From: Nemertoderma westbladi
Lineage: Eukaryota; Animalia; Xenacoelomorpha
Direction: 5' to 3'
Assembly: GCA_032718475.1 (NCBI GenBank)
Contig: JAUCBJ010000816.1
Span: 36,476-100,475, forward strand
Length of the DNA stretch: 64,000 nucleotides
Shown here: positions 10,292 through 61,768 of the stretch, piece after piece
Layout: every line of letters starts with the position of its first letter
How positions within the stretch are numbered: position 1 is the stretch's first letter
The notes under the pieces: generated by a model
What the model was told of the DNA's origin: nothing
Databases searched by the model: none
The model's input: only the letters and a program-made list of their open reading frames with translations
Translations under genes and position numbers: made by a program

Positions 10292-10477
10292 TCAACGAAT
10301 AGAATGTTCTTCAAGTATATCGAAGAGGCCTCTATTGTTAGTGGAATCTACAGTTCCTAGGATCGAGGCCGAGTTGCCGATTAGGATGGCTATCAGGAGT
10401 CTTGGCAGCAGGAATCGATGAGACCGGGGTTCCTGTGTTGCTTGTCGAATCTTCCTGCCGACCTCTTTCAGGAATGA
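10292..10477 (-). mobile_element. 3' relic of a CRE/SLACS-type (restriction-like endonuclease) non-LTR retrotransposon
   Basis: Translation SFLKEVGRKIRQATQEPRSHRFLLPRLLIAILIGNSASILGTV matches the CRE-group C-terminal pattern FLxQRLSxAIQRGNAASILGT. Not in the ORF track. Confidence 0.65.
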
Positions 10478-10753
10478 GGTTTTATAACTGTTTCTGATAT
10501 TTCAGACTGTAGAGAATACAGAATCAGTGAGTAGTTTACGTTTCAACTGTGGTATCTGACTCGCAAATTAATTTTTTCTCTAAATGATATATTAGTTAAG
10601 AATTTCATAAAATTGTTTAACCTTTTAATGGGTAAACTTTTAAACTGCAACACTGTAAAAGCTTTTGCGGATATAACAAGTCATTTTTGTCCGCAATTTA
10701 CTGTGTAAGTGTTTTAGCGGACATAACAAGCCATTTCCCCCGCAATGCGCAGT

Positions 10754-11907
10754 TGTTTGCGCTTTTGAAGACCTTTGACAGTTTAACCTGCCAAAATTAG
10801 AATGTCTTTTAGATGATATATATTCTTTAGCTTTATGACGAGTATTTGATACCCTACATTAGCCGAAGCCAGTCTATGCGCAATCATTCACCCGTTGGAT
10901 ATACCCGGGAGACTGAGTTCGGAGCTTAATGATTGATAGTGTAAGCCTACCGTATTATTCGACTGATCGTAATATATAATCTCTGACCAATATTATTCAC
11001 TTTCGGGAAATATTAACAGTTCCTTTTGGACGTGGCGCTCTAAATATGTAAACAGAGTTATGACTTAAACTAGACACAACGAAAAGGCTATAGATTAACG
11101 TATATGGCACATTCTTTAGGAGATGCTTTGTTATCAGTTACAATCATACACAATGCTGCACAATACTGCACACTAATCTGCCGACCTTCACTAAATTTGG
11201 TCACGTATAAAGAGAGCAACAGACAATTTATGTTGGGCATATGAAATAGCATTAGATTCACTTCAAACCACTTAACATACATAGGTCGCAATCGTTTATC
11301 TGTAACCGGTCTCTCTAACCTTTAGTATATCAAGAAGGTGGGGTGTCTGACTATTGATCAGTATTCCGATATAATATTTCATCAACAAATATAACGAATA
11401 ACCAACAGCAAAAGCAGTAATGTAAGATATGAATTGCATAGATATGTATGATAAGATTGTATGTAGGTAGGTCGATTTGATAACAGATATACGTTCTATA
11501 ATTAAGCCTACTAATGTAAAGCTAAAGAATGCTGATATACGTAGGTGCCAAAGGCCGATGTTCTTAGGCTCTAGCAAAAAACATAAACACTGAACTACTG
11601 AGTTTCTGTATACACCTCCAACACAGAGACAAAAAACGCTCTGATTGGTCAACCGAACAACGAGAGAACAAAGAAACAAAGAAACGTCGACGTGGCAATA
11701 TCAGCTGTTAGCCGTCGTCATGGTAGCGACACTGTTTTCAAGAGTATCTAGCTTATTGCGTCACGAGATTGCGGATTATGTTCTCTAAAGTACAAATACA
11801 ATACAAATACATAAGAAATGACTTTTATGTCCTCTAAAACACCAGTACAGCAAGGACACGGCCTTTTTAAGGGAAAATAACCGGTTAATGACGCAAAAGC
11901 TTTTACA
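10754..11907 (-). repeat. 3' LTR of the BEL/Pao element
   Basis: Near-identical to 28190-29318. On the minus strand it starts TGTAAAAGC directly after the purine tract. Confidence 0.95.
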
Positions 11908-11985
11908 CCGCTCCCAGAAAATGGGATTTAAGTCTATAAAATATAACAAATCACAGTTTCTAAAATATAAAAATACTCTAAACAG

Positions 11986-14900
11986 TTAGTCTTTCTTACG
12001 CGGACGGCGTTTACGCAGTTTTTTGAGGCTAGTAAGAGTCCTTTTCTCTTTGGGGCGAGCCACTTTACTAGGAGGGCTGTAACTCCTGGGTGAAGGGTGC
12101 AATACAATTGCATCAGAAGGTTTCGGATTGCGATCGGTATATCCGCCGGTCGAGGTACCTGGTTGATCGATATCAACTTCCGTGGAGCGAGGTCTAACAG
12201 CCTTTAGGGCGCGCCTCAGGACAGCAGCTCCTACGGGTCCTTGACGGGTTGTCTGGGCAATGGCGGTAGGCGGACCGTGGGTGGTAAGAAACTTCCTTGG
12301 TTTAATAGTTCTTTCCAGCTCGCGTTCTCGGGCTCGATATTCGTAGGGCCGTCGAGATACTTCCTGTAACTCAGGGTGCGAGTTGATAAATAAATCGCCA
12401 TACTCAGGGTCTTGACGGATATAATTGATCAAATGGTATGAAGTAATATCGTTAGGATTGACGTTCCTAAGGTATCTTCTAACAAATTTAGTGGAAATAC
12501 ACTCACCAACACGCTTCATTAGCTCGTAACTCGGTACGCGTGTTTTTTGTTCCACAGATGCTAATAAATAAGGATGGAACGCGTAAACTCCCTCGTAAGA
12601 GCGTCCAGGGTAGTATCGATGACGGGACTCACAATGTAAATCCGCGTTCGCTTCCCAAGCTCGAATGTAGCGCAGGGTAATCATTTCATCTACGCTCTCT
12701 AAATCGTGATTAAAGGGGCAATTATAACTGGCATGTCCTTTAAGTTGACAGTGGTGGCATTGAGTCATAAATTGGGGGCAGACTGCAAAAATATGAGAGT
12801 TATTAATTCTGCAATACTCACAATATATCTCCATCATTGGTTGTTCGTGGAAGTAGGAACAGGGTACGTCTGAGTCCATAGGAGTGAAATGGTCTCTCGA
12901 TGCGCATAATCGACAACGTTTTCGAGAAACATAGTTAGCGTGTCGATAATCGTATGCGGTGAGACATTGTGGACCTTGATACCACTCTAAGACGTAGTCG
13001 TTATCGCTGCTCCGGGGCGCTGTAGGTTGAATCGCTTCAGCTTCTAAGCATATTGGTTCGTCTTCCAATTGCATAGCTGAGGTAGGTGCGGCTGTCTCCG
13101 CAAGCGGACCCACTGTCTGAACTTCGACGACAGAATAACCCGTGGGTATTCGGGGTCTTTGTATAACAGATGAGTGCAAGTTCTGTATACAAACGTCCTG
13201 AAAAAGGGCAAATCCCGCGCTGTTTAGCTTCTCCGCCGCTGAGTCTCTCAGGCTGAGTTTGGTCAGAGCGCGGTCCTTGAACTGACTATCAACGTTACGG
13301 AACGGAGTCAGAAAGCGCCTGAAACATTCAAAGCGGATGAATTTATTGTGTTCATCTAGCTTGGCGAGTTTGGTTCCAAGTATTAAGGGATGGGCGCGTA
13401 TGGTACGACTGCACACATCGGCTAGCCAACCGGCAAGTGCTGCGTTTTCAAAGATCGTGTATATAGCTAAGGAGGGACGAAGCGGAACACTCATAAAGCT
13501 ATACACGGCGCCAGGTGCGGTCAATGGTCCATCAAAGTATAAACGAGAATAATGATCTCCGTATACTTGTTGGTAATTTATAGGATTTCCAACCTTGAAA
13601 TTCCATCCGTATTCTTGAAAGGCAAGATGTCCGATGGAGGTTCGTTGTACTTTGGTAATTCCGCTGGGTGTATTGGCATACATAGTGCGGAAGAAACCTC
13701 GGCCTTCTGCCCAAGGAGCAATCAGCTGAGTATCAACGAAGGGGTATGGAATGTTCTCCATATTCCGAAAGTCGTTCTGTAGGTCTCCATAAACAGCTGA
13801 GCCGATTTTAAGGATTCCTTCGTTAAACAGCATCTCGAGCACGGGTTGGGGTAACATCGATCCATCGATACCCATGGCCGGCTTGCGCTCGGTGTCGGTG
13901 ACGTAACGCTGCGCGAGTTCAAATTGTCCATGTCGGAGTTTCTTTTGTATCTCAGTAAGAGTTTCAAAAGAATAATCAATAACGTCGGAACACGCTCGAG
14001 TAAATACGTGGGTAGAACCAGCGAGTCCTCGTATGTGTATCATCCGCGTAGTTCCAAGTTCTCCAACCGGAACGCTACCTTCGTTATCGTAAGTGACAAC
14101 TCCATACATCTCGATAACGTTAAGAGTTTCGTTCCACTCTTTAGTGGCGTTTTCGAGTGTCATTCCCACAGGATGCCACAAGGTAGCACATTCGCTAGCA
14201 TTAGGCAGGTCTTTATACTTTAAATATTGTGTGGTATGTGTTTCCTCATCTCCATATCGTTGTATTCTTTCCTCCTCGAATAACACATCAAGATTCCAGT
14301 GCACTAAACGAGTTTTGATGAATCCATCAAGATTATATGGAGGTATTGTTTCTTTCTCTATTCTGGAAACATTATATGGTTTTCGAAACGAGTTTACTTT
14401 AACTAACTGATCCAGATGTTTCTGCAGTTGTTCGAGTTCGACAAGATCGAGAGGATTTATTAACGGTAGAAACTTCAGACTATGTGTAGGATCTTCCGGT
14501 TTTACCATGTAATATTGTTTGAGATTGACGTAATAAGGGTGATCTTTGATACCATAAAACGAGTCCGGTAAAGGTCTAGCGCGTATGTTTACATCGTGTA
14601 CCATACGACGGACAAGATCTGCTCTATTGTCCGGAGGTTCAACGAGTATACCATCGACACGAGCGGGTTCGATGGGCGGACGCTGCAACAGAGGAGCGTC
14701 GGCGATAAGATCGCGAGATCTTAGGTTGATATCAACCGGTTGGGGTTGTGCCGTCGCAAAAAGTTTGTCTCCGAAATGGGGAACCATCGAGGGATGAAGA
14801 ATGGTTTTAGAGTAGAGATCCGTCATAAGGATTTGCGCTTCGGGTTGAGCTAAAGCCGCTTCTTCTCTCTCATCCAGTTCTATATGTCTCTCCTCGAGCT

Positions 14901-16239
14901 GATTCTCCTCCGCTTGTTGTTGTAGACGCTCATCTAGAAACTCTTGCAAAGAGTAGGTTCGTCCACGTTCGATGTCCTCCTCGAGATTTTGTATTTCTCT
15001 ATCGAACTGGGGTAAAGCTAATTCCTTCACCGCTCGGACTTGTTGCTGCAATTTACGCTTCTCCAAACAATCGTACGTTCCCTTTCCGATTTTCTGCCGA
15101 ATAGCGTCTAATGCATTTCGTACAACGCTCTCTTCGACTTCCGTAACGGGTTGGATAGAGGTGAAGCCGGGACGGTTGTATGGGTTAAACGTTGATATTA
15201 GATGACCACGTCCCAATCCAGCTAGGTAGGGTTGGCGAATGTCTCGTGAGCCTACTACCGGAGTGCCACCGATCAACTGTTCGGGTAACACTAGATCTTT
15301 GAACAGTGAGTACAGTTCGGGAGGATCCGTGATACTATTAGGGTCAAGAGTTTGAGGTCTAACTGAGGAATGCGGAGGTCTGACCGAGTATTCCGGAACT
15401 CTGATCATCGGTTTGTTCAAGGATCGCTTGAGTCGAGCGACCGCAGGGGACACATCGAACAGGTTTCGCTCGAAACTCCCGTAAGTATATCGTGTAAAAC
15501 TGTGTTTAGCGCAACGTCTCCGCGGATGTTTATGTCTTTCCGTTTGCTGATTGGGTCTAGGGCATTCGTCGCAGTAATACCAAAGACGCATGTCCTGCAG
15601 AGGAAACGCGGGTGATCGTTCTCCAGTTTTACAATATTCCTCCATCTGTTCGAAGCTATCTGGGACAACAGGTAGCGGTCGATCAGCGGTAAGATACATC
15701 ATAGTAAAATAGAGTCGTTTGAGTTCTATCATAGGATCATGATGTATACCTTGAGGATATCGAGTTTCGAGATTTTGTTGACTGGCAATATTGAGGTATG
15801 TTTCTCTCAAGAATTCCAGATAATCGTTGAAGTCGTTGCGTTTATCCGGTTCTTCAACGTCTTCTCTTTCGAGTCGGTTTCGAATAGAGTTCTCGTGTTC
15901 TATTCTTGGCTTATCGTTCCGATTCCGTTGGGTATGATATTTAAATAAAACCATTTCCCTTTCGGTATCCACATCGTCCGTATCGTGTAAATCGATAGGG
16001 TGGCCGGTAGTTAAGAAGTCCATATACGTACCATTACGATGCGTATAGCGAGCGGTGAACTTTCTATAGTCCAATTCACGCGTAAGTTGCTCCGGGGACA
16101 TTGGCGGTTCGATATAACGACCATCATCCTCCGTAGTAGTTGGACCAGCGTCGCCGCGTATCAAGCTATCGACAAACGCTTGTAAAGGTAGAGTATATCG
16201 CTCCCTGATGCCAAGATCATCTTCTATCAACTCAGTCAT
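11986..16239 (-). CDS. Accessory 1417-aa protein: DEDDy-like 3'-5' exonuclease domain + CCHC zinc knuckles + basic (NLS-like) C-terminus
   Basis: Uninterrupted ORF. ExoI-like VVTYDNEG (D718/E720), ExoII-like ILKIGSAVYGDL (D819), PFVDTQ, ExoIII-like PLRPSLAIYTIFEN (Y927/E931). CRLC..H, CEYCx5Hx4C and CHHCx4Hx4C at aa ~1109-1174. Tail KKLRKRRPRKKD. A homolog lies at 59960-61802. Confidence 0.85.
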   Translation of the reverse strand: MTELIEDDLGIRERYTLPLQAFVDSLIRGDAGPTTTEDDGRYIEPPMSPEQLTRELDYRKFTARYTHRNGTYMDFLTTGHPIDLHDTDDVDTEREMVLFKYHTQRNRNDKPRIEHENSIRNRLEREDVEEPDKRNDFNDYLEFLRETYLNIASQQNLETRYPQGIHHDPMIELKRLYFTMMYLTADRPLPVVPDSFEQMEEYCKTGERSPAFPLQDMRLWYYCDECPRPNQQTERHKHPRRRCAKHSFTRYTYGSFERNLFDVSPAVARLKRSLNKPMIRVPEYSVRPPHSSVRPQTLDPNSITDPPELYSLFKDLVLPEQLIGGTPVVGSRDIRQPYLAGLGRGHLISTFNPYNRPGFTSIQPVTEVEESVVRNALDAIRQKIGKGTYDCLEKRKLQQQVRAVKELALPQFDREIQNLEEDIERGRTYSLQEFLDERLQQQAEENQLEERHIELDEREEAALAQPEAQILMTDLYSKTILHPSMVPHFGDKLFATAQPQPVDINLRSRDLIADAPLLQRPPIEPARVDGILVEPPDNRADLVRRMVHDVNIRARPLPDSFYGIKDHPYYVNLKQYYMVKPEDPTHSLKFLPLINPLDLVELEQLQKHLDQLVKVNSFRKPYNVSRIEKETIPPYNLDGFIKTRLVHWNLDVLFEEERIQRYGDEETHTTQYLKYKDLPNASECATLWHPVGMTLENATKEWNETLNVIEMYGVVTYDNEGSVPVGELGTTRMIHIRGLAGSTHVFTRACSDVIDYSFETLTEIQKKLRHGQFELAQRYVTDTERKPAMGIDGSMLPQPVLEMLFNEGILKIGSAVYGDLQNDFRNMENIPYPFVDTQLIAPWAEGRGFFRTMYANTPSGITKVQRTSIGHLAFQEYGWNFKVGNPINYQQVYGDHYSRLYFDGPLTAPGAVYSFMSVPLRPSLAIYTIFENAALAGWLADVCSRTIRAHPLILGTKLAKLDEHNKFIRFECFRRFLTPFRNVDSQFKDRALTKLSLRDSAAEKLNSAGFALFQDVCIQNLHSSVIQRPRIPTGYSVVEVQTVGPLAETAAPTSAMQLEDEPICLEAEAIQPTAPRSSDNDYVLEWYQGPQCLTAYDYRHANYVSRKRCRLCASRDHFTPMDSDVPCSYFHEQPMMEIYCEYCRINNSHIFAVCPQFMTQCHHCQLKGHASYNCPFNHDLESVDEMITLRYIRAWEANADLHCESRHRYYPGRSYEGVYAFHPYLLASVEQKTRVPSYELMKRVGECISTKFVRRYLRNVNPNDITSYHLINYIRQDPEYGDLFINSHPELQEVSRRPYEYRARERELERTIKPRKFLTTHGPPTAIAQTTRQGPVGAAVLRRALKAVRPRSTEVDIDQPGTSTGGYTDRNPKPSDAIVLHPSPRSYSPPSKVARPKEKRTLTSLKKLRKRRPRKKD

Positions 16240-17059
16240 ATCTGCTATAAGTTTATCAATATTATAATGAGTTTATATATATTAGGCTAGCGGGCGTCGC
16301 TGCCTACCCCTCTTTTGCCCCCGGACAGTGTAAGATCCTCAGCGCCGATGTACCGTCGTCGCTGTGCTTTCGCCAACGATGTAGCTACACAACGACAACG
16401 ATAACCGGCACAAATCACTTAACTGTCCGTCCCAAAGGCTTAGATGTACTGCAGGTTCTTCTTGGAGAGTTAGGGTTACTTTCACAATTGCGACTCGCTA
16501 CTGTAAACACACCTTAGTAGTAACATTCACCTACAAACGCACAAATTCAACACAACTGCAACAAACTGCACACATTCAGGCCATTTGTCCGTTAGTCAGT
16601 ACCTTCCAGAATGTCAATGTATTTATTATGTATCCTTGGATACTAGCAGTGCGCTATTTATTCCCTATGCTATTCAATGGGGCATGCTTTCTATTGTTCT
16701 TTTAACTCACTTCTAATTCTAGCGTGGTAGTTGCCATGGTGACATTATGGAAAGCTAGCGGTAGAATTAGGGTAATTCTCATGCATACAGATCTGGGATG
16801 CTATTTAATAGTAATTCTTTAATTGTCAATATCCTCTCTATATATGATTTTATGAATTTTATCGGCTATTGACTATGCATTGGAGATTCTCGCACACAAA
16901 TACACTTAATAGAGTGAATCTCCGCTCCCATGATCTATTAATTAATGGAATTTTGGGAATGTTATAAATTGTACAAAATGACAATTTATTAAATTCATTT
17001 AAAGTATGAATTTAAATTTATTCCCGTGAATTTTATTATTTGATGTTAAATAGACACAA

Positions 17060-17326
17060 TTTTATTCCAGAACGTGTCTGGGGACTGGGATCCTTGATTC
17101 TAGGAATTTTGTCCTTTTAAGAGTATCGGTAAGTGCTACGATATCTTAATCGACTAGAATTTTAAAGGATCTGATATTTGACAGATTTTTGTAAATATTA
17201 ATAATTAATATTTAGGATGGGCACCAGTTTATTCCAGAACTTGTCTGGGGACGTTAACCACTGATTCTAGAAATTTGTCTTTCAAGTATATCGGTGGGTG
17301 CCGCGATATCTTAATCGACTAGAATT
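17060..17326. repeat. ~100-bp direct repeat x2 in the pol-accessory spacer
   Basis: TTTATTCCAGAAC.TGTCTGGGGAC...CGATATCTTAATCGACTAGAATT at ~17060-17161 and ~17228-17326. Confidence 0.8.
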
Positions 17327-17879
17327 ACAGATGGTCAAAGGGTTTAACAGATTTATTTTGCGTTATACGCTACTGTTAAAGGGACATCACGCTACTATAT
17401 GTATTATTTAATATACGGTATGAGAGCAATATCGCACGAAGCAATGTCAGTGTGAAGAGGCAAGTCGTTTCCAAGGTCTACCCAGAGCTTGGTTTAGCCG
17501 AGACACGAGGATCTGAACTTTGCATTCCTAATACTCTGCCTACCAATAATACTTGAATATAGTAGTGGCTTCATTGTACTTTAATAAGTACGAAGATTTC
17601 ATCTTACTGTAGTCACGTATTGATAATGTAATACGGGCAGTAAGGAAAGAGAAAAAGAATTATTTCTCGCCGTCGCACTAAATATATAATATACGTAATT
17701 AAATAATAAACGCGAATATATATTGCACTAATCTACTAAATAATCTCTAAAATACCATACTACTAAATAAAATTAAATAAAACGATTAAAATAAAATTAC
17801 ATAATAATACATACATAAATATAAAAATAAAACAAATACAAATATAAAGTAATATGGTCACACACCCACTCCAGCCATT

Positions 17880-20800
17880 TTAAGTTGGGGAGTCCCTAGA
17901 TGTTTGTTGGATTAGGGAGGTGGTCGTGGGAAGAGTATCTTGTCTCCCATAGTTTCCGGAGAGTTCTCTGTCTCTTTCCAGTAAACATAAACGTCCCACC
18001 GGGCGATTGAGCTGCTGCGTCTCGAAGACAATTCCCGGTTTCTTGAAGTTACGTCGCATGACGACGAGTTCTACCGATCGCACCAAACCGTGATCCGAGA
18101 TATGCGTCTCGATTATACGACCTGTCTGCCACCGCTTACGTGGAAGATCCACATCCACAATAAGCACCATGTCTCCGGCGCTGACGTTTTCTTGCTGCGC
18201 AAACCACTTAGTTCGAAGTTGTAGCGTGGGCAGATAATGTTTTTCGAAATGGTCAGCGAAACGACGGGATAACAACTGCATGAGTTGCCAAGTTTGTCGG
18301 CAGTATTCGTCTCCATCTGTGATTTCCGATTGTGGGAGCATGGCTACAGGTTTCTTCAGTAGGAAGTGCGCGGGTGTTAGCGCTTCCAGGGAATCGGGAC
18401 TCGATGAGACTGGCATAAGCGGTCTCTCATTGAGATAGGCGGCGATTTCTTCCATTAACGTCCGCAAAAGTTCGTCGGTGAGATAAGCGCGGCAAGGCAC
18501 TATAAAATGAAATGCTGTCTTCACGCTTCTTATTAATCTCTCCCAACTTCCTCCCCACCAAGGGGCGTCGGCGGCGTTGAAGGTCCAACTAGACGCTGTT
18601 ACTCGTAGTTGGTCGTCCACCTGTCTTTGGTTCCAATCTTTGACGTAAGCTTTGATTTCATTGTTGGCACCAATGAAGTTTGTTCCCTTATCAGATCTCA
18701 TCGTGTTACTAGTGCCAAAGCGAGCGATCTGTCGTCGTAAGCTTAATAGAAAGCTGTTGGTAGATAAATCGTTCACCATATCGAGATGGATGGCTCTACA
18801 AGTCATACAAACAAAGATTACAGATTAAAGATTAGTAAAGGGTGGTTCATAAAAGCTTACTCGTTCCCTAGGTAATTCTGCCTCTCTCTGTGTTAAAGGC
18901 CTACTGAATGCTTTCCTACAGGGTATACAGTTCCTAAGAACTTGGTTCAGAGCTCTACGGGGTTTATAAAAATAATAGCGAGTTCGAATTTCGCTAAGAA
19001 CTCGTTCTCTACCAGCATGATAAAGTTTGCTGTGAACATCTACAATCATCTTGACTTGTATTTCAAGATTTCTAATGAGTATGGGGAACTTAGTATCAAA
19101 GGATAATGGGGCGTTCGTTAATCTTCCTCCAACACGTATCAACCCATCTATCATTGTGCTAGAGAAACGATCCCTTAGGCGCATCTGTGGATTTCTCAAC
19201 AACAGGAAATACTTATCGGAATCTTCATAGCATTGTAAGAGTCTTAGCAACTGTTTGTTGGTTTCTTCATGCTCCTGATAACTGATCTTCTCCTTCAGAA
19301 ACTTGTCGGGTACCTTATATTTAGGGAGATCTTTAATAACATGGACCTGCACTGATATGATTGGAGCGGTATCACCCTTTGTTTTCATCCCAGAGTAGTG
19401 ATGGTGAAAACATCTCTTTAAATATGTAACGGCCTTACAGAGCCGATTCCAAGAACTGTAGTGATGTATCGCTCTCTGCAGGAGAGGTGAGAGTCCTTGC
19501 GAGATGTCAGGTATGCCAGATTTCCAATCCTTATCACGGATTTCCACAACGAGTTTATTTGTGGCTGTGGGTTTCTGATCCAAAGCTTCGTCTCCGGAAG
19601 TATGTAGTACAGACAGATCTACTGTGGGTTTGAATAACTTCGATTTACTCGCCTGAGTTTTAGGTTTGACTTTCTCCGCTCCCTTGGCCTGTCTAATTTC
19701 TGCTGTAGTAAGATGAGGAGGCCATTCTTCTTCTTCTTTGTAAAGGAAGTCGGGTCCAACTAACCAGTCTGGAGTATCTACCAGTTCTTGTGGAGTTGCT
19801 CCCCTGGAAGCGATGTCCGCTGGATTAATCGTTCCGGGGCAATGTCTCCATTGATCCATCGTCGTGCGACTGAGTATAATAGCTACTCTGTTGGTAACGA
19901 AGACGCTGAACTGACAGACTTCATTGGTTATATACTCCAACACGAGTAAAGCGTCGGTCCAATAGACAGTTTTCTCCAGAGGATAGTCGATCTGTTCTGT
20001 TACATTCCGGCCGATGGCTGTAGCGTATAGAGCCGCTTTTAACTCCGCTCGAGGAACTTTCAACTTGTTGTTTATTAATGCCTTAGAGGTAACCAAGGCG
20101 ACTTTAATTCCGTCCGGAGTTTCCACCCTTAGGTAGGCTACTATACCTATTCCCATATCGATGGCTTCTCCAAACACATGGAGTTGATATGAATACGTAG
20201 GGAGAACATGACCAAAGTATGAACGGGAAATTATGAAGTTTTCGATGGCTGGTAGAGAATCTTCCCATTTCATCCACTTCTTTAATAATTCTCCCTTAAG
20301 TGGATCGTCCCATGAGTGGTTTTCAAGCCACATTTGTTGTACTAAACTCCGAGCAATTAATATAACTGGGCTAATAAATCCCAATGGGTCGAAATAAGTG
20401 CTCAGGATACTTAAACATATCCGTTTAGTCCGAACTGGATTATCTCGCTGTTTTAGTTGGAAAAACAGGATATCTCTTTCTGTGTCCCATTTCAAACCAA
20501 GGGTCTTAGTTTCTGGGAGATCATCCTTTATTAGATCTAGGTCTTTTGTTCCTCGATCTTCTACCGGTATCGACTCCAGAAACTCACGGGAGTTGCTGGT
20601 GAATTTAGTTAATCGAAATCCACCTTTCTTTAAGCATTCTACCGTTCCCTTTGCGACCTCAATGGCTTCTTCGACTGATGGAAAGGACTTCAGATTATCG
20701 TCCATGTAGATGTCTCGTTTAATATTGTCGATCACTTCTTTAGAGAAGGTGTCTCGGTTGTCATCCGCAGTGGTGCGTACCACGGAACAGGCGTTTGAAG

Positions 20801-23800
20801 GGCTCGAGATTATCCCAAAGGCTTGGATGGTCATCCAGTACTCCACCGGTTTCTTATTGAGGTCTCCTTCAGGCCACCACAAAAATCGTAGACTATCTCG
20901 ATCCCTATCCAGCGCTTTGACTTGTAAGAACATGCCTTCTATATCTGAGGCGAAAGCAATGGAGTATTGTCTTAACCTTAATAATATTCCCAACAAGGAT
21001 TGGAGTAAGTTGGGTCCGGGCAACAATTCAGAATTAAGGGATTGGCCCATATAGAGGGCGGAGCCGTCGAACACCACTCGTACTTCATGGGGTTTACCGG
21101 GTTTGGGAACGTAATGGTGAGTTAAATAATACGTTCTCTCAGTTATAGGAGTTTCTTCCGGTACTAGCTCCGCATATCCCTTGCTAATAAACTTCTTCAA
21201 CTGTGTTTTATACATTTCTTTAGCTGAAGAATTTGCCGTAAGGCGTCGATGTAGTTGAGCAATTCTTTTCTCTGCCAAAGGTCTGTTGTTAATGAACTTT
21301 GGTTCTCGCTTTCGGAAAGGAAGTCCGATCTCATACCTACCTTGATCTTTAAGAAAACGAGTAGTTGTCGCTTGGATCTGCTTGGCTCTTTCTTCCTCCA
21401 CCGATAGGGCCTTATCGTAGGAGTTGGGCTCTACGACCTCTTGAGTAAAGAATCTCACGGCGTGTTCATCCCGAGTCTTGGCATTATAACGTTCAATGAC
21501 GTCATTAAGCTCGTCGTTATAGTCGTCTCGCTCAGATGGGTGAAGGAGTTGACATAAGTTCACTTGATTTTGCCAAGTCTCGCTTTCCTTAAGGAGATCG
21601 ATGGCATTCTCCTCATCAAAAAGTTGATGTATATCGTCGTTGTCTGAGGAGTATGGAGTTCCCTCAGTTGGATCGTCGAACTCACTGTTCTCAACTTCCC
21701 ATTCTCGCGCTTGGTATACCTGCTCTTTAGGTAATCTTTCCATTAGAGTTCTACGGGAAGGGCCAGTAAAGTACCAACCTACTCTAGTTCTTCCCGCATA
21801 AACTTGTAGAGGTTGCGGTTGAGCAGGTCGTTTCTCTAATGTCTCGAGCGCTTCATGCGCATTTTGACCGATGAGTATTTGCACTCCAGGATAATCTGTC
21901 TGGAATCGAGGTATCTTAAGATGTTGGATGCTCTCATCCTCGTCCCAATTATAAAGGTCTGCTTGAGTAGTAGCGAAGTTCTTTATAGCCACCATTTTCA
22001 CTGACCTTATGCTATGTTCTCCTAGTTCGTCCTGGGGGGTGGACAACGCACCTACATAATAATCTGCTGTTACTGTGGATTTCCAAACTTGCATAATTCC
22101 TGACATGTTTAGCTTAGTTCGGAACTTGGGTTGTCCATCGAATATGTCTTCGGCTAGCTCTTTGTCGATGAATGTTCCTGTACTACCGGAATCAAGGAGG
22201 GCGTTCACTACATAACTCCTTTTTGGTCCGTGGACCCTTACCTGTACCACAGGAAATTCTCTAATCCCTACATTGGAAGTTGGCGCTTTCCAAGATGGTT
22301 GTCGATCAGAAGTAGTTAGAGCGAGGTCAATGTCTGTTTCTTTTTCATAAATGAGTGCTCGATACACTGTGGTATTTATCATGTAACAGGATTCGTTTTC
22401 GTCGGAGAACTCGTCCGTATAGAATCCTTCCATCTCAGATTGATCAGTGTCGTTCACATCACTGAATTGGACATGTAATTCGGAATCACTTACCTGACTC
22501 GGACTATTTCGCTCGAATTCAGTGTGCAACAAGATATGATGTTTCGCACTGCACTTGGTACATCTTGTGTCAGAGTAACAGGTTCGCCGTTGGTGTCCAT
22601 GTCTGAGGCAATTATAACACAACCGCTTGTTCCACATGACTTCACGTCTCTCAGTTAATGATTTCTTTAGAAATTCATCACACATATTTAAGCGATGGGT
22701 CCCATCACATAGCGCACATTTCGGTTTGATGTTACTTACCTTACTCTGAGTAACATTGTGTACACTTGTTTTTTCTTCGGGCTTTCTCACCTGAATTCTC
22801 TTGGGAGACGTAGGAGGAGTTTTTCTTACCTGTTCTCTCCTGTCATTTGTTCGAGACTTGAATTTACTTACCTGATCTTTAGGCATTTTATTTACGTAAT
22901 AAGATCTATCAGTGTCTTTCCCGCTATCTTCTCCTTGAGAAGTCTGGCTTTCGCCATCATCTGTATAACACACTGGTGTTACCTTTCTCCGAGCGACGGG
23001 TTTTTCACTTACCTTGTTTTCCGGTGTCTTCTCTCTGGACAATTTCAGGAGCTGTAATTTCACTTCTCCATCTAGGAATGACATGAGATCAGCCATGGTA
23101 GGGTCTCGTCGTTGTTGTTCCATCATATATAGCACTTTCTTATCCCAGCGTGTACCTACTCCACCCTTCGGTAAAGTAGAAGCCACTGCTCTAATAACCA
23201 TAGCATTCTGATACTCATGAGACTTACCTAGCCAATCTAATTGTCTGCAGATCTCCTGAATCTCATCGGAAAACTCTATAATTCCGCTGCTAATAAACTT
23301 TCGGGGCGCTACCAACTTTGCATACAAATACCCAGCTATATTATTCCTATTACCATACCTGATGTTTAGTGTATCCCAAACTTGTCTTAATCCGTCTGGA
23401 TGTCCAATAAACTTTAACGCCATTAACTTGGGAGATCCTTCCAAGCACTCGATGAGGAATCTAAGTTTCTCTCCATTAGATAGCACAGAGTTCTGTATGT
23501 TATCTTTGTAATATTCATTAAAAGGTAACCATTTCATCTCATCTCCATTGAACTTGACGATCTCTCCCACCTTTACTGCTTGCCGGGCTTCGGTTCTAGC
23601 CATTTGACGCGTAAAACTTTCTTGGGCCATCGTGTTATTTAATATCGAGTTATCGGTATATAAATTTCTCGGATTATGATCCGGTCTATAGGGAATATCA
23701 TTATCAACAGGTCTATAATTACCCTTAATAGGGTTCACTATAGGAGTTTCTACTTCGCTAGCAGTATAGATGCGTGTAGGCTCCACACCTTGCGCATGAG

Positions 23801-26000
23801 ATACTTCAGACCTAACAGGTTGACACATGGTTACAGGGGGTGGTGGTATACCCTTTTGTGCATTTACTAATTTATCGCGTTCTAGCGCGATACTTTGCTG
23901 CACTTCTTGCAACTCTAGCCTACTTTCCCTTACTGTGCCCTTGAATTGCTGAACGGTCTCCTGCATCTGTCCGAGCAGGAGATCCATCCCCCGTCGTCTC
24001 TCATCCACCCATTCAACCGCCGAAGCGGGATTCGCCAACATTGTAGCGGGCGGACGAGGGACAACGGGCGACAAATCATGGATATTTCGCTCGGAGTCCA
24101 GGGCATGAACTGTCTCACGGACTGTTCTGCTGGGCACAGGTAGCTTAGTGCTGTGCAAAGGGAATTGAGAGGTAGGTTCAGGGAGTACAGGTGTCTCTAC
24201 GACCGAAAGGGTGGCTTCGGGAACAGACCTAACTATTTCGGGCTCATCTACTATAGTAGGGAGTCTCTCTATTGTAATTATTTGGTCTGTGGGTTCTGTA
24301 CTACCTAAGTTGGTGTTATTTAGTTGCCTTCTAACAGCTGGAGGCAAATCAGGCAATTTTTGACGGTGGGATGTTCTTTTACGTCTGCTTAGGCGAGATC
24401 GATTTCCTCCGCCTTCAGTGTCGGTGGTATCGCCTTCCTCAGATGATGTATAACCCTGTCTTTTGGGAGTAGATCGATTCATCATCTGCATATTACTAGC
24501 TGTTAACTGTTTATTAAAGTTGTCTTGTCTCTCTTGAAGATTTTCCAACTCTAGTTGGGCAGTCTCTTCAGACGCCTTTCATTCTGCTTCTGCCACTGCA
24601 GCTGCCAAAGCCGCCTTTCTTTCTGCTTCTGCCACTGCAGCTGCCAAGGCCGCTTTTCTTTCTACCTCTGCCACTGCCGCCTTTCTTTCTGCTTCTGCCA
24701 CTGCTGCTGCCGCTGCTTTTCTTTCTGCTTCTGCCACTGCAGCTGCCAAGGCTGCTTTTCTTTCTGCCTCTGCCACTGCCGCTTTTCTTTCTGCTTCTGC
24801 CACTGCTGCTGCCGCTGCTGCTATCTTTCTGTCTTCTATACGTTTTTTCTTTACTTGTTCTTCTTGAACCTTAGTGATGTGGATGCTTTCATCAAATTTA
24901 GCTTGGTTCGCAGCTCTCATATCCACATCGATGGCGTCCAACACACGCTGGGCTCCTTCACTATTAGGGCTAAGTCCGTCCAACCTTCTCCTCAACTCTT
25001 CATCACCTACGAAACGCTGATAGTCTGACAGATAGATGTCAATGGCATCCCTCTTATGCGGTTTCTCTGCCGTCGCTTCACTTTCCACTTGGGAAAAAGT
25101 AGCGTCTGTTGATTCTCCATGGGTTGAGCGCTCCTCCAGCTGAGCTTTCCACTGAGCTGTTCCTTGAACCTGGCGACTCACCCGTTGAAACCAAGTCTTT
25201 ACGGCAACTTGCAACGACGTGTCTTGTCTTCTTTTAGAAGCCTCCTCAAAGGCCGATAAGATTAGCCTAATTCGCAGAATTCTTTCTCTAACTTGATAAA
25301 GCAGTTGTCCCTGCTCTTGAGGTCCTTGAGGTTGTTGAAACAGTTGTTTTTCTACTCGCTCCATAGAGCTGAAGAATCCTTGTGCGTATCCGGCTGCGGA
25401 CCTCTTCCATACAGCTGGATCGATGGTTTCCTTGGCTACTCCCATCCGGTGTATGTCTTCCCAGGCAGCTTCTGATAAATCAAACGGGAGTCCGGGTCCG
25501 GGGAAGTTCCATTGCGACTCGACCATAGACTTCAGTTCTTCCCTTGTGTATCCCTCATAACTATCTTTAGTTGATTGCTTACTTCTCGCCCAATCGATCT
25601 GGTGTTCTTCCACCGCGATCAATAACCTAGTGAGTACGGCTGCAGGAAGGATGAGAAGGGGATCCGAATAAACCGCATCCGTCATCTTTGCTCCGCGCTC
25701 GGGTGTCAGTTCTACAGTATCTTCACTACTGGAGCTGTCGGGCCGCTGAGAAATAAGTTCTTGGCTCGCGGGTTGTTGCTGTTCCGCTGCTTCTTGGTCC
25801 CGCTTGACCTGAGCTCGAGTGCCTATGATAGACCTACGATGTTGGACCAGCCTAGGTTCTGTTATTACTACTGGAGGGATGACCTTCCTCACAGTGGGAG
25901 GTGAACTGAACTTAGGACTAGACGGTTCTACACCTCTATCTGAGTCGCAGATAGTTACATCTAATAAACTGTCTGACAGGTTCTGCTTAGTATCAGACAT
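17880..26000 (-). pseudogene. BEL/Pao gag-pol polyprotein in one reading frame with two disruptions
   Basis: ORFs 24579-26000, 18825-24548 and 17880-18806 share one frame. Gag CALCDGTH..C / CYNCLRHGH..C / CTKCSAKHHILLH, protease ALLDSGS, RT YMDD, RNase H LHVFGEA..WTDA..NPADIASRG, integrase H..H..CIPC, SDKGTNF, WWGGSWERL. In-frame TGA at 24579-24581; stop plus deletion at ~18825. Confidence 0.95.
24582..24825 (-). repeat. Coding tandem repeat (AAAVAEAERKA)n in the Gag N-terminal extension
   Basis: About six Ala-rich, coiled-coil-like units of 30-42 bp. Confidence 0.9.
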
Positions 26001-27344
26001 GTTTGTTTACACAGTTGAATGTCTACTGCTATTACAGTCTAAGTAAGTCTAGTAATTCAGTATTAACTGCTAGCCTAGTAATTAATTACCGATACTGCTA
26101 CTCAGTGTAGCGTGATATATAATATATTAGTATACCGGTATGCTTATAGTATATATAAGTATTATTACAGACTAGTTTATCACAGAATACCGGTAGGTAA
26201 TTTTAGCACAAATATATATAAATATATAATAGGCCTATCGTGGATACCGGTATGCAGTTTACACTTATAGTATATATAATACAAGTATAATTATTAACTA
26301 GAATTAATTACAGAATACCGGTATGATTTCAGCTTAAGTTTATAAAAATAAATATAATAAGCCTATTGGAAATACCGGTATGTCAATTATTTTAGAATAA
26401 TTGAATTTCTGAATTTTAAGGGTTACTTGGTTACTTTAACTTACTTTATTACCGTTATTTAAGCAGTAGTCCAACTGATATTGAGACCTAATTGTGGTAT
26501 GGCAGGCCTACTATTTATAAATCGTTTGAGTTGATTTATAATATATATATACCCGTTTAATGGGTTTTGTCAATGTTTGAAATAAATGTTATTATTTCTG
26601 GGGGAGTCACTACACAAAGTTGTGTGCTCTCAGTGGAGTGCTACTTGTTAGACACTAAAACAAATAATTCTAATTTACCTAAGTTACTTAATACTACAAA
26701 TTACGTACAATTCGGGTTGAGATTACAATCTCTAAATAAACACAAAAATTTAATTACAAATACACAAATACAAATTTTTAGGGTAATTTTACAAGAAGTC
26801 TACTAACCAGCCTAACAAAGGGTTAGAATATCTGGTTATTACAACGGACAGGTTACTACGGTATTTGAAAATAATAAGTAGTAGTAAATATACTGCGTTG
26901 TCCAGATAGGAAAATACCACCGCCTGACGACCTATAACCGTATCGCTATAGGTACTACGTTATGTATCACGGAGTGTCCCTACCTAGAAGTTAATTACCG
27001 CGGTCTACCAGAACCAACGTGCCTATTAACCACTTTACAACACAAATACACTACCTACACACTAATTGCTTTCGGAAAGCACTGTACACTAAACCCTAAA
27101 TTAGGTACAAGTACTTGTACAACAATAATTAGTAGTTAAAAATACTTGAACAGCTAAAAGAACCACGGCATCTGCTGGAGTGACCGGTGCACAAAATCAC
27201 CAGTCTTTACCTACGCCGAGCAGCCCGTATAGTACCGGGGTTAGTTTAACTATAACGGTATGTATAACAAACACAATTACTGTAGGAATAAACTTGGGGA
27301 ATATGAATGTTGCGAATAATCGCATAAACTCTGAATAATAAATA

Positions 27345-27850
27345 TTACGCTACGCGTACAAACCATTCAAACAAAGTGCAGACCAAATACTGACAGACTA
27401 CTATCAAGCCTAAACAAACTACGGTATATGTAGACTCCGAAATGGTTAAGTAGTATGCGTTCTAACCCAGTAGTACGACTTATTCTTTAGATGGGGGTTT
27501 ACCTTACAGCAATGGCTGCCCCTACTTCCTAACCGTTCTTTATCGGACAGATGCTTTACACACACCGAAATTTCCTCAAACCCAACAGCAGCCAGACAAC
27601 TATCCAGCCTACAAATTATCTAAATAAAATTATACGCTACCCGTACAGACTACACAAACAAAGTACAGACCAAACGCCGGCGGATTCCTATCAGGCCTAA
27701 ATAAACCACAGGACATGCAGACTCCGAAATGGTTAAGTAGTATGCGTTCTAACCCAGTAGTACGACTTATTCTTTAGATGGGGGTTTACCTTACAGCAAT
27801 GGCTGCCCCTACTTCCTAACCGTTCTTTATCGGACATACACTCTACATGC
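27345..27850. repeat. ~287-bp direct repeat x2 in the 5' leader of the BEL element
   Basis: AGACTCCGAAATGGTTAAG...CTTTATCGGACA is almost identical at 27432-27549 and 27719-27837; the flanks are more diverged. Confidence 0.9.
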
Positions 27851-28178
27851 ACTGCAATCCGTTCAGACCTAATCAACAGTTAGCCAACAGTCAAGCCTAC
27901 AAATTATCTGTACAATCTGAACAGGCTTACACGCCTTCTGCTCAATACTGGCCTACAAATAAATAAAACTGACAGAAATAAGTAAGCTCCAAAAGAAACA
28001 AGGGGTGTACAGTCCCTAATCTCTTAAACAGCCTACCGGTATACAATACCACAATCGAATAATACTGCTGTACCTGTACTACTGTAGGTACCGGTCCGGA
28101 TGATCAGGCAGTCAGGCCTACTGGTTACCGGTCGACCGGTACTTTCTACTAGATTGCTTACACCGCAATCCAGAAGCA

Positions 28179-28189
28179 ATATCTGTTAT
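28179..28189 (-). other. Non-tRNA primer-binding-site candidate (ATAACAGATAT)
   Basis: Abuts the CA end of the 5' LTR, has no TGG, and is the exact reverse complement of minus-strand LTR nt 28926-28916. Confidence 0.65.
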
Positions 28190-29318
28190 TGATTGCGCTT
28201 TTGAAGACCTTTGACAGTTTAACCTGCCAAAATTAGAATGTCTTTTAGATGATATATATTCTTTAGCTTTATGACGAGTATTTGATACACTACATTAGCC
28301 GAAGCCAGTCTATGCGCAATCATTCACCCGTTGGATATACCCGGGAGACTGAGTTCGGAGCTTAATGATTGATAGTGTAAGCCTACCGTATTATTCGACT
28401 GATCGTAATATATAATCTCTGACCAATATTATTCACTTTCGGGAAATATTAACAGTTCCTTTTGGACGTGGCGCTCTAAATATGTAAACAGAGTTATGAC
28501 TTAAACTAGACACAACGAAAAGGCTATAGATTAACGTATATGGCACATTCTTTAGGAGATGCTTTGTTATCAGTTACAATCATACACAATGCTGCACAAT
28601 ACTGCACACTAATCTGCCGACCTTCACTAAATTTGGTCACGTATAAAGAGAGCAACAGACAATTTATGTTGGGCATATGAAATAGCATTAGATTCACTTC
28701 AAACCACTTAACATACATAGGTCGCAATCGTTTATCTGTAACCGGTCTCTCTAACCTTTAGTATATCAAGAAGGTGGGGTGTCTGACTATTGATCAGTAT
28801 TCCGATATAATATTTCATCAACAAATATAACGAATAACCAACAGCAAAAGCAGTAATGTAAGATATGAATTGCATAGATATGTATGATAAGATTGTATGT
28901 AGGTAGGTCGATTTGATAACAGATATACGTTCTATAATTAAGCCTACTAATGTAAAGCTAAAGAATGCTGATATACGTAGGTGCCAAAGGCCGATGTTCT
29001 TAGGCTCTAGCAAAAAACATAAACACTGAACTACTGAGTTTCTGTATACACCTCCAACACAGAGACAAAAAACGCTCTGATTGGTCAACCGAACAACGAG
29101 AGAACAAAGAAACAAAGAAACGTCAGTATCTAGCTTATCGCGTCACGAGATTGCGGATTATGTCCTCTAAAGTACAAATACAATACAAATACATAAGAAA
29201 TGACTTTTATGTCCTCTAAAACACCAGTACAGCAAGGACACAGCCTTTTTATGCCTAGCAAACCAACTACAGAGTACTTTAAGGGAAAATAACCGTTAAT
29301 GACGCAAAAGCTTTTACA
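28190..29318 (-). repeat. 5' LTR of the BEL/Pao element
   Basis: TG...CA ends, CCAAT box (plus-strand CTGATTGG at ~29077), near-identical to 10754-11907. Confidence 0.95.
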
Positions 29319-30375
29319 GCAGTATAGGTGCTTTAGCGGACATAACAAGCCATTTTTACCGCAATGCGCTTAATACTCTAAATAGATTGTAGTTCAGATG
29401 ACGAAATCTGTCAGCTGATTTACTGTTGATGTGGAACTTCTTTGTTCAGCTCGCTCAGCCAATCAGAGCGATTTTCATTTTATCTTGCACAGAGGCCTAC
29501 GGAAAACCGGGCAATGCATTACGGTCTTTGTTTACCTTTCTGAGCGAGAACAACTGCTTGGAAATTCTTCTGTACTTCTGTGTTGGAAGTTTCAGACTTT
29601 GACCTAAACATCAGAAACATCAGATGGCTTTGATTACAAGAACGTAAAACTATTAACGCGGCACTACGCAACGCGATTCAACTACCGCATCACACCGCAA
29701 TTCATGCATTGCTGCACATGGAACACTGCATAAGTAACACATACTGACTGTTCACTGCATTATATTACTTCTGTTATTAATTATTATGTTGGTGTATATT
29801 GCTGATATATTTGGAGAATACCGATGAATAATCATAAAACCCCCAATCTTCTTGATTACTAAAGGTTAGAGGAACAGGTTTACCGGTAGCAACTGCGACT
29901 TACATTATAGTGGTTTTTGTGTGAATTGAATGCTATTTCATAATCCCTACATGTGTCAGTTGCTATCCTCCTTATATATGATCAAATTCAGTGACGGTCG
30001 GCAGATCAGTGCGCAGTAGTGTGAAGTAGTGTGAAGGTTAATAAAGCATCTCCTAAAGAATGCGCTTTTTACGAAACTCAGTAGCCATCCAGTTGTGACT
30101 TAAAGCGCCACGTCCTAAAGGAACTGTTAATATTTCCCCGAAAGTAAATATATTGTCAGAGATTATATATCAACGATCAATCGAATAATACAGTAGGTCT
30201 ATACTGCAATCACTATCAAAGCATCCGAATCCAGTCTCCCTTAACTGTGGGTGAATGGTCTCGCACAGGCTGGCTTCGGCTGATGTAACTTCAGTACATT
30301 AAATAATTGATATACAAAAAGACAACTAAAATTGGCAGGTTAAACTGCAAAAGGTCTAAAAGCGCGAACAAATAC

Positions 30376-59959: not shown

Positions 59960-61768
59960 TTATATTATCGCTTTCGTTTGGGGTGGCATAAAGAGTCGTT
60001 TCCTCCTTTTCGCGGGTGTCGGGGGCGCAGGTAGCGCGAGGTCGTCGCTCGAAATCGTCTCGTCGAGACCCGGGTGCATATCCACTGCATCAGGCGTCGG
60101 AGAACTCGGACAATCAGTATATGTTCCGGTGGAGGTGCCGGGTAAGGACGGGAACTCAGCCAGTCTCGTGGCGCGTGAGTTGGCAGCCGGTCGACGGAAT
60201 CCCGGTTCCAGGGGAGCGGCTAAGCGCTTCCGCATGGCGGTTTGCACTGGTCCGGAGGGGACAGTTTGGGTAGCGGTACCAAATGGAGACTGCTGGCCGA
60301 GGAAAATTCTCGGAGACACAGCGTGTGGGACCAGTCCTTCATGATAAATGTGTTCTTGGAAGGCTCGGTGCTGTGGAAGCAGCTCGGGATGTCTCTCCAG
60401 GAAGTGGGGACCATAAAAGGGGGAGTCTTTAATGAATTTTATTATGTCGTAAGACGTCACATATTTTGGGTGTGTTTCTCGAAGAAAACGTCGGACGAAA
60501 TGGGTGTTGGTGCAGGAAGCTACACGGTTGAGGAGTTCGTAGCTGAGTAGCCAAGCACATCTGACGTCAGTGGCGCAAATAAAAGGAGTCAGGGAATGAC
60601 GAAAGCATTCGAGGTTCAAAAATTTACCAAATTCATTGAGCTTGGCAAGTTGGATTCCAAATAGCAACGGGTGCGTTCTCAATGTACGGCTACATACGTC
60701 CGCAAGCCATCCAGATAACGCTTGGTTTTTGAATATGAGTTACATCGCCAATGAGGGGCGCTAGGGGACACTCATAAACTATACACGGCACCGGGAGCGG
60801 TGAGTGGTCCCTGAAAATAATAGGGTGAATATGCGTCACCATAAACTTGAGAATACGTCTCGCGATCAGTCTCCTTGAAGTTCCAATCGTACTCCTGGAA
60901 GGCGATATGGCCGGAGGAAGTACGATCAACTCAGTTATACGTATTGTTAGCGTTGCGTCAATACATAACTCCGAAGGAGCCGCGAGATTGCGCCCAAGGA
61001 AGGATAACTTAAGTGTCGACGAAGGGATATGGCATATCGTGGACAATAGGAAAATCATCCGTTAAGTCCCGATATATGGCTGAATCGAGTTTGTAGACTG
61101 ATTCATCCAACAGAATGTCTAACACCTGTTACGGTAACAAAGTAGCGTCGATTCCCATAGCCGGGTGTCAGTGTGTGTCATTGACATAAGCCTCCGTTTT
61201 AACAAATTGTTAATGTCTCGCACAGGGTTGATAAGAAGTCAAGGTGGGGAAGGCGCTATTGGTTCGGGGCGAATACCTTTGGGATAATGAGTTTGTTGAG
61301 TTTGGGCCGCCATTATATTTAAATAAGTTTCTCGAAGGAACGTAACTAAGTCCTCAAATTTGGCCGTGTTAACGCTGGTTTCTGCGTCGTCTGTCGACAT
61401 GGCGTCTCGGATGGCGTCTTCCCTGTCCATTCGCGCGGTATCCTCCCGTTGTCTCTGTACATGATAACGCCACATTTCCATGTCTTTTCGCTCATGAACA
61501 TCTTCTGAGTATATAAGATCGTTCGGGTGTCCAGATATGACAAACGGTTTATAAGATCCATCTATATTAGTATACCTGTCCATAAAGGTGTGGTAATGTA
61601 GCCGCTCGGATACCTCTACCGGGGACATTAAAGGTTCCGTATACTGTTGCGGTACTCCAGGTGTCAACAAATCCTCCATCATCTCTCGCATACCTCGACG
61701 ATATTCCTCTGAAAGTTGTTGTCGCTGTATATTGATATTATCCATTGGATCATCATTAGAAGTATCCA
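59960..61768 (-). pseudogene. Decayed, internally deleted paralog of the 1417-aa accessory ORF
   Basis: Collinear peptide blocks: YTEPLMSP/YIEPPMSP, FLRETYLNI (identical), YPKGI/YPQGI, PAMGID, PYPFVDT, RTHPLLFG..LAKL..ECFR..LTPF, SYELL..FVRRFLR..HPEL, PGTSTGTYTD/PGTSTGGYTD. The exonuclease part has several stops. Confidence 0.9.

Follow-up and report, generated by a model that had tools for sequence, protein, structure and literature searches.

We analysed a 64,000-nucleotide stretch from Nemertoderma westbladi (contig JAUCBJ010000816.1, positions 36,476 to 100,475 of the forward strand; hereafter 'the window') and found that it contains a BEL/Pao long terminal repeat (LTR) retrotransposon carrying an intact third open reading frame (ORF3) of 1417 codons downstream of its pol gene. 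ORF3 is almost certainly a real accessory gene of this BEL/Pao family, and residues 700–950 of its product very probably form a DEDDy-fold domain of a remote RNase D/WRN/EXD type. We propose more tentatively, and at somewhat short of an even chance, that the intact and selectively conserved gene encodes a zinc-knuckle-guided exonuclease that trims the element's own replication intermediates.

A BEL/Pao element with an intact gene downstream of pol

The element occupies 18,565 bp of the minus strand (29318 to 10754). It has the TG...CA LTRs and 5-bp target duplication of an LTR retrotransposon, and its BEL/Pao identity follows from the order gag, protease, reverse transcriptase, RNase H and integrase, from three Cys/His motifs in gag, and from Pao-specific Pfam domains (Peptidase_A17, E = 2.6e-33; DUF1759; Integrase_H2C2; DUF5641). 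The two LTRs differ at 5 of 1099 aligned columns and by indels of 1, 30 and 54 bp, which indicates a recent insertion. The gag-pol frame of the present copy is interrupted by two in-frame stops (24579 and 18825); the first lies in a tandem repeat rich in Ala and Glu within the N-terminal region of gag (24562–24870, minus strand). The initial annotation had called the element 'giant', a term that does not hold, since its inter-LTR region of 16.3 kb falls under the 20-kb internal length set as the bar for such elements in the excerpted text of PMC6431247.

ORF3 is co-oriented with gag-pol, begins 1640 bp past the pol stop and ends 78 bp ahead of the 3′ LTR. It runs uninterrupted and without introns from an ATG at 16239 to a stop at 11986 on the minus strand, as first described (the strand had been left unstated). 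The motifs originally quoted from its product were all located where they had been placed: YCDECP at residue 222, VVTYDNEG at 714, LFNEGILKIGSAVYGDL at 804, PFVDTQ at 833, SIGHLA at 868 and PLRPSLAIYTIFEN at 919. No signal peptide or membrane segment was found in the protein, whose 19-residue hydropathy peaks at 1.19 and whose N-terminus is charged, and we agree that the gene is not an env.

Conservation of ORF3 across a diverse family

Five runs contain all or some of this DNA, and in four of them contigs reach every one of the 30 bins into which the element was divided; most differ from it by 1–10%, which points to a diverse, multi-copy family. In run X1, 140,495 contigs matched the 19.4 kb from 10300 to 29700 (a number of contigs, not of copies), and one contig (X4 record 20) bridges the spacer and the start of ORF3.

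Across positions 12400–14260 (ORF3 residues 660–1279), 515 substitutions were recorded in the four runs. Among the 40 best supported, 31 were silent and 9 replaced an amino acid; with a neutral expectation of 22–30% silent changes, this corresponds to p ≤ 1e-9 and a ratio of replacement to silent substitution rates (omega) of 0.08–0.13. Residues 700–950 account for 19 of these 40 substitutions, 17 of them silent. Four indels were listed in the same interval, each in a single contig. Over the whole element, of the best 40 of 3137 substitutions, ORF3 held 6 (5 silent) and gag-pol 23 (19 silent), the 11 non-coding ones being set aside; the best 12 of 230 indels were all non-coding. ORF3 is thus under purifying selection among copies, with an omega of about 0.1; this value is approximate because the count is limited to best-supported rows, which favour common variants, and that limit tells against our interpretation. 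Neutral evolution, which the initial annotation had named as a refuting outcome, did not occur. The codon usage of ORF3 correlates more closely with that of its own gag-pol (r = 0.58) than with that of two other sets of element ORFs (0.16 and 0.33).

The window also holds a decayed ORF3 paralog that belongs to a diverged subfamily and is 41% identical to ORF3 over residues 41–170, 49% over 738–922, 68% over 915–980 and 35% over 1219–1394. A 150-bp direct repeat (93–96% identity; 58547–58696 and 63484–63633) flanks this copy, and positions 63760–63730 resemble the 5′ leader of the BEL/Pao element (E = 0.012); together, the bracketing repeat and the piece of leader hint at a derivative that lacks gag-pol and retains ORF3. 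An LTR suspected by eye downstream of the paralog was rejected (alignment score 199.5, shuffle maximum 203.5). Contig joints suggestive of internally deleted family members occur at 13065/15870, inside ORF3 (runs X4 and X5), and at 12120/14878 (X1 and X3); a joint at 17704/27613 that skips gag-pol comes from a single X4 contig with a short side and is unreliable.

These data bear on whether ORF3 was captured from the host, or is an unrelated insert, and has no role in the element, or whether residues 700–950 are not a nuclease at all. Such a reading would account for the lack of named homologs and would fit the paralog, upstream of which the window shows no pol gene. It is hard to square with an omega of about 0.1, with the absence of introns, and with the retention of ORF3, along with blocks of upstream DNA, in a subfamily diverged by ~50%; in addition, six kinds of test converge on one nuclease family. 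An unrelated nested insertion, another outcome that had been set against the gene, was not borne out. We consider this explanation very improbable and already largely refuted.

A probable remote DEDDy-type domain

A search of 1.84 billion representative sequences returned one match (E = 8.4e-6), an unnamed 648-residue protein (P0002) from a 9449-bp ENA contig. P0002 forms a singleton cluster. It is 30% identical to ORF3 over 150 residues of the nuclease and carries the same DEDE-y pattern (D-x-E, D, Y-x3-E) followed by three knuckles and an aromatic-rich stretch, in the order found in ORF3; it lacks the 690-residue N-terminal half. Its own match to PF01612 has an E of 0.2, and that of the ORF3 domain to the NCBIfam RNase D model an E of 0.017. 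Against an alignment of 44 RNase D sequences, a profile of the two proteins gave an hhalign probability of 93% (E = 3.4e-7) over 47 columns. Conversely, an RNase D hidden Markov model ranked ORF3 first and P0002 second of 237 sequences, each above all 1000 of its own 1000 shuffles (for ORF3, 17.0 bits against a shuffle maximum of 4.9). In a blind search, the two-protein profile gave weak matches in 77 of 201 bacterial genomes, and in the 61 genomes that were also scanned with PF01612, 20 of 24 such matches fell inside PF01612 domains. The nearest Atlas cluster is eukaryotic, with PF01612 in 100% and zf-CCHC in 61% (score 0.89), and the ten best Atlas family matches all belong to the same family or clan.

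The best-anchored residue of the proposed site is D819, which all alignments covering it match to the invariant aspartate of RNase D and which the paralog retains. D718 and E720 fit both the D-x-E of P0002 and the predicted three-strand pattern, and together with Y927 and E931 they are the best fits to P0002 inside the appropriate regions for Exo I and Exo III. An alternative Exo I register at D755 was rejected, having no D-x-E and being followed by a predicted helix; an alternative Exo III register, Y912-x3-S916, has no acid. The preferred Exo III register is Y927-x3-E931 in place of the canonical Y-x3-D, and P0002 also has a glutamate there. This glutamate lowers the case for a 'canonical DEDDy' enzyme, but not the case that the domain works like one. 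Because the last ligand is a glutamate in both proteins, activity cannot be assumed; the ORF3 nuclease is fairly probably active.

Structure prediction used AlphaFold seeded with an alignment (A6) that was chosen after alternatives had been seen and in which RNase D fragments cover just the C-terminal half. The model has strands at residues 716–724, 730–738 and 741–747, a stretch without aligned RNase D rows. The ten best Foldseek matches were all to EXD2, which is absent from the seed (E = 0.013–0.089). In the VIA search, RNase D matched with Z = 4.6 and a root-mean-square deviation of 4.3 over 112 aligned residues. About half of the 50 VIA rows, judged by their titles, are DEDD-type nucleases, among them Nibbler, EXD1 and QIP.

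Several points weigh against the assignment. Each homology signal for residues 700–950 is weak when taken singly, and significant similarity is limited to 47–51 columns around Exo II. Pfam gave no match to the domain, its sole signal in ORF3 being a weak one for the knuckles, and an Atlas score under 0.9 counts as a lead only. Exo I and Exo III were not top-ranked in a scan of RNase D blocks (each was second against P0002), were not recovered by a three-strand-block profile, and took other registers in most MAFFT settings tried, so that the Exo I register is not fixed statistically. The fourth ligand is Glu and not Asp, making the site (D718-E720-D819-Y927-E931) DEDE. AlphaFold run on the single sequence reached a predicted local distance difference test (pLDDT) of 30. 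The seeded model reached 53 overall and 42–52 over the strands, and is partly circular because its alignment includes RNase D fragments. Foldseek template modelling scores were at most 0.21, and no VIA match reached Z = 5, the best (4.7) being to an unrelated protease. Finally, the decayed paralog has lost the Exo I region to a deletion and has a stop where the Tyr would be and a Lys where the Glu would be; this may reflect decay after insertion, and the paralog lends the proposed site no support.

Of the DEDDy domain originally proposed, remote homology over residues 700–950 and a significant Exo II block stood, whereas Exo III ends in Glu, and its register, like that of Exo I, depends on the alignment. 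The EXD2 match (E = 0.013) points weakly to the DnaQ/RNase H-like fold expected for residues 690–950, with the pLDDT of 53 and Z ≤ 4.7 on the other side; a prediction lacking any such fold, which had also been named as refuting, did not arise.

Word-indexed searches with full-length ORF3 and with the ORF3–P0002 alignment returned no matches, and residues 45–270 of P0002 retrieved P0002 alone. Viral, metagenome and prokaryote contigs and phage records yielded no homologs, and plasmids a single match at E = 6. These empty searches do not show rarity, since the libraries searched contain little animal repeat DNA.

Other parts of the ORF3 protein

No credible match to residues 1–690 emerged from Pfam, NCBIfam, PHROGs or PDB sequences, in line with the initial impression that this half resembles nothing recognised; hits to Rad4/XPC-type proteins (E = 0.11–0.13), topoisomerase VI B (E = 0.019) and NudE (E = 0.67) were judged to reflect chance or composition. 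Pfam likewise gave no match to residues 34–180 or to the Cys/His cluster at 222–246. The N-terminal half, which includes a block kept between subfamilies, may represent a new domain. The stretch at 395–465 had been described as a charged coiled coil; it is charged and free of proline, with a weak coiled-coil-type match to NudE (E = 0.67–1.3), while the coiled coil itself rests on a crude heptad score.

The Cys/His motifs at residues 1109, 1140 and 1161 correspond to the CxxC..H motif and two CCHC knuckles first reported. They match zf-CCHC_3 below the Pfam cut-off (E = 0.0054), and the best PDB match of the two-sequence ORF3–P0002 profile for this region is HIV-1 nucleocapsid (E = 0.003).

The spacer upstream of ORF3

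The AT-rich spacer between pol and ORF3 aligns locally with DNA upstream of the paralog (score 310, against a maximum of 208 in 40 shuffles). Three conserved blocks (Table 1) are collinear in the two copies, lying 1288, 558 and 282 nt upstream of ORF3 and 1285, 663 and 351 nt upstream of the paralog. The spacer also contains a TATA-like run at 16281, and it probably controls the production of a separate message for ORF3. Both copies of block 3 (16495–16521 and 62093–62120, minus strand) contain GTGTTTAC, which we take to resemble a forkhead-type binding site.

A predicted hairpin near the end of the spacer has a folding energy of −58.4 kcal/mol (z = −7.3; none of 200 shuffles was as stable), against −34.1 for the opposite strand, and is the second most stable of 461 windows along the element. 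The most stable lies in gag (23950–24090, minus strand; −73 kcal/mol, z = −6.2, 0 of 200 shuffles) and is a possible packaging or recoding signal. Rfam returned only mir-23 (E = 0.29), far under its cut-off.

Possible functions of ORF3

In the mechanism we favour, ORF3 would be expressed from a separate message, arising from the conserved spacer or through splicing, and its product would act as a 3′-to-5′ exonuclease on the ends of the element's replication intermediates. Two metals would be held by D718, E720, D819 and E931, with Y927 as the DEDDy tyrosine; the nucleocapsid-like knuckles would grip single-stranded RNA or DNA, and the N-terminal half would localise or oligomerise the protein. 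Candidate substrates are the primer RNA, the genomic-RNA 3′ end and the cDNA ends of the element; that its own intermediates are the main substrate is plausible, if rather less than an even bet. We place this mechanism first because of the nucleocapsid-like knuckles, the acids kept in a distant relative and the apparently non-standard primer site. With regard to the last, no TGG-type primer-binding site directly follows the 5′ LTR (from 28184–28189 to 28150), the first TGG lying 11–17 nt downstream. ARAGORN found no tRNA.

The same domain could instead serve as an adaptor with little or no activity, which would recognise the long hairpins of the element and move its RNA, in the manner of Egalitarian, EXD1 or Rev/CERV. 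Egalitarian and EXD1 use the nuclease fold to bind RNA. EXD1 is described as inactive in PMC5408684; the CERV protein of Cer1, as described in the excerpts of PMC10309623, is a precedent for an export protein in an LTR element. A DEDE site and two long insertions unlike the standard domain would suit such a role, as would the charged helical stretch, the basic tail and the two very stable sense-strand hairpins (16429–16322 and, in gag, about 24070–23955). However, the long hairpin at the equivalent place in the paralog is no more stable than its shuffles (z = −1.0), and no common structure superimposes the two upstream hairpins. Each of the four ligand positions also carries an acid in ORF3 as in P0002 despite only ~25–30% identity, which is more easily explained by metal binding. 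We regard an adaptor role as unlikely.

A further alternative, unlikely but somewhat less so, is that ORF3 counters silencing, either as a nuclease that over-trims or destroys piRNAs, siRNAs or their precursors, or as a decoy for Nibbler/Mut-7 and EXD1. Nibbler, EXD1 and QIP share the fold class, the element family abounds in the host's runs (as the X1 contigs attest), the basic tail suggests nuclear import, and a silencing role was entertained for the ORF3s of rotifer elements (PMC5408684). In those rotifers, however, the DEDDy families are still covered by small RNAs and show no clear link to copy number (PMC5408684), and ORF3 has no recognised domain for binding PIWI or otherwise handling small RNAs. 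An extended version, in which an active DEDE-y exonuclease, three knuckles and a new 690-residue module jointly disarm piRNA silencing and ORF3 founds a counter-defence family, we hold to be doubtful. If true, it would explain the abundance of the family, and the upstream hairpin would control ORF3 expression or yield a small RNA.

Table 1. Features of the BEL/Pao element, ORF3 and its paralog (window coordinates).
Feature	Position	Strand	Remarks
Target-site duplication, 5′ side	29319..29323	-	ACTGC
5′ LTR	28190..29318	-	1129 bp, TGTA...ATCA; end possibly 6 bp further, at 28184
5′ leader	26004..28189	-	2186 bp, contains 290-bp tandem duplication
BEL/Pao gag-pol, single frame	17880..26003	-	three Cys/His motifs, protease, reverse transcriptase (YMDD), RNase H, integrase
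Spacer, pol to ORF3	16240..17879	-	1640 bp, AT-rich
Conserved non-coding block 1	17479..17527	-	78% over 49 nt to 63054-63007, E 2e-4
Conserved non-coding block 2	16742..16797	-	80% over 56 nt to 62432-62378, E 3e-8; ordinary fold
Conserved non-coding block 3	16495..16521	-	86% over 28 nt to 62120-62093, E 0.009
Predicted unbranched RNA hairpin	16322..16429	-	108 nt; ends 83 nt before ORF3 ATG
ORF3, accessory gene	11986..16239	-	1417 aa; ATG 16239, stop 11986, uninterrupted
N-terminal block, aa 41-170	15730..16119	-	41% identical in paralog, E 2e-29
Cys/His cluster, aa 222-246	15502..15576	-	C-x2-C-x9-H-x-H-x4-C-x2-H; possible metal site, from sequence
Charged stretch, aa 395-465	14845..15057	-	probably helical or coiled-coil
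RNase D/WRN/EXD-type (DEDDy) exonuclease domain, aa 700-950 (very probable)	13390..14142	-	proposed site D718, E720, D819, Y927, E931
CCHC zinc knuckles, aa 1109-1178	12706..12915	-	one divergent (CX2CX4HX9C), two near-canonical
C-terminal block, aa 1219-1383	12091..12585	-	35% identical in paralog
Basic tail, nuclear-localisation-like	11989..12057	-	by eye
Likely polypurine tract	11908..11915	-	short purine tract GGGAGCGG; adjoins 3′ LTR
3′ LTR	10754..11907	-	1154 bp, TGTA...AACA
Target-site duplication, 3′ side	10749..10753	-	ACTGC
ORF3 paralog, diverged subfamily	59960..61769	-	decayed, internally deleted; stops, frameshifts, two large deletions

Neighbouring repeats

The BEL/Pao element lies ~95 bp inside an LTR that has the opposite orientation and belongs to a related family (10654–10753 and 29319–30371, plus strand). 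This flanking LTR has the same TGTAAAAGCTTTTGCG start, is about 70% identical to the element's own LTR and recurs at 44715–47909 (plus strand), where it is interrupted by a reverse-transcriptase ORF (45155–47092; RVT_1, E = 9e-30). A joint of 10748 to 29319, with 5 shared letters, occurs in one contig of run X1 and one of X3; it is no proof of insertion polymorphism because the flanks belong to a related, repeated LTR. Elsewhere in the window, a 476-residue ORF (31379–32809, plus strand) has an aspartyl protease domain (E = 1.5e-6) and is followed by G-rich tandem repeats (33226–33668). A fragmented gypsy-type element (51900–57315, minus strand), with reverse transcriptase, RNase H, an integrase zinc finger and a knuckle, lies between 226-bp direct repeats (94%).

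Comparison with known systems

Where cellular RNase D has K..H, ORF3 has KIGS, which we take to be more WRN/EXD2-like. The domain shares with the cellular PF01612 enzymes (RNase D, WRN-exo, EXD2, Nibbler/Mut-7 and EXD1) the Exo II block L..lL.n..i.K...D...f.DTQ, the three-strand N-terminal pattern and the PL-x6-Y-x3-acid form of Exo III, and EXD2 tops the fold search. It differs from them in an identity of about 20% or less, in carrying inserts behind strand 3 and ahead of Exo III, in its final glutamate ligand, and in having no HRDC domain detectable by Pfam. PF01612 divides into WRN-type and RNase D/Rrp6-type groups, and PF05380 is the BEL/Pao RNase H, according to the excerpted text of PMC3985635.

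Additional coding units downstream of integrase are also found in the env-bearing belpaoviruses of nematodes (Atlas virus and Cer13), which belong to the same retroelement family. There, as described in the excerpts of PMC9094657, the unit is a phlebovirus-like fusion glycoprotein, in contrast to the ORF3 product with its lack of a signal peptide or membrane segment. The DEDDy precedent in nematode Cer elements mentioned in the initial annotation was not found in a literature search. That search also returned no BEL/Pao element with an exonuclease ORF; Repbase and GyDB were outside its scope, and a prior description is possible.

The rotifer precedent cited there is real. The bdelloid LTR elements Juno and Vesta carry an ORF3 encoding a DEDDy exonuclease, with a DEED site and untested activity, that is shared with Athena/Terminon elements (PMC5408684); the same account recurs in the excerpted texts of PMC5718144, PMC6431247 and PMC6338049. 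As in Juno and Vesta, the N. westbladi gene is a separate ORF after pol that encodes an RNase D-like DEDDy domain with one altered ligand and no membrane segment. The site is DEDE here and DEED in the rotifer proteins (PMC5408684), and the carrier, compared by description, is BEL/Pao in place of the Juno, Vesta, TelKA and Mag clades of that report. Unlike the rotifer ORF3s, none of which appeared among our homolog-search matches, the present protein has 1417 residues, three CCHC-type knuckles and a 690-residue unassigned N-terminal half. Its copies are under purifying selection, whereas the rotifer env and GDSL ORF3s were roughly neutral (PMC5408684; DEDDy ORF3s were not sequenced there).

ORF3 would extend the known DEDDy-ORF3 theme: its carrier is a BEL/Pao element, its DEDE-y domain leans towards WRN/EXD, it has three knuckles, about half of the protein is unassigned, and its copies bear the mark of selection. 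What nuclease genes borne by retrotransposons do has been a question since 2017; relative to the rotifer report of that year, the present case brings a different carrier group (BEL/Pao), a far larger protein and, for a DEDDy ORF, directly observed purifying selection among copies. Selection among ORF3 copies argues that nuclease genes of this kind do work for the element. With an intact gene, an abundant family and a named candidate active site, the activity, substrate and small-RNA effect of the protein are now testable.

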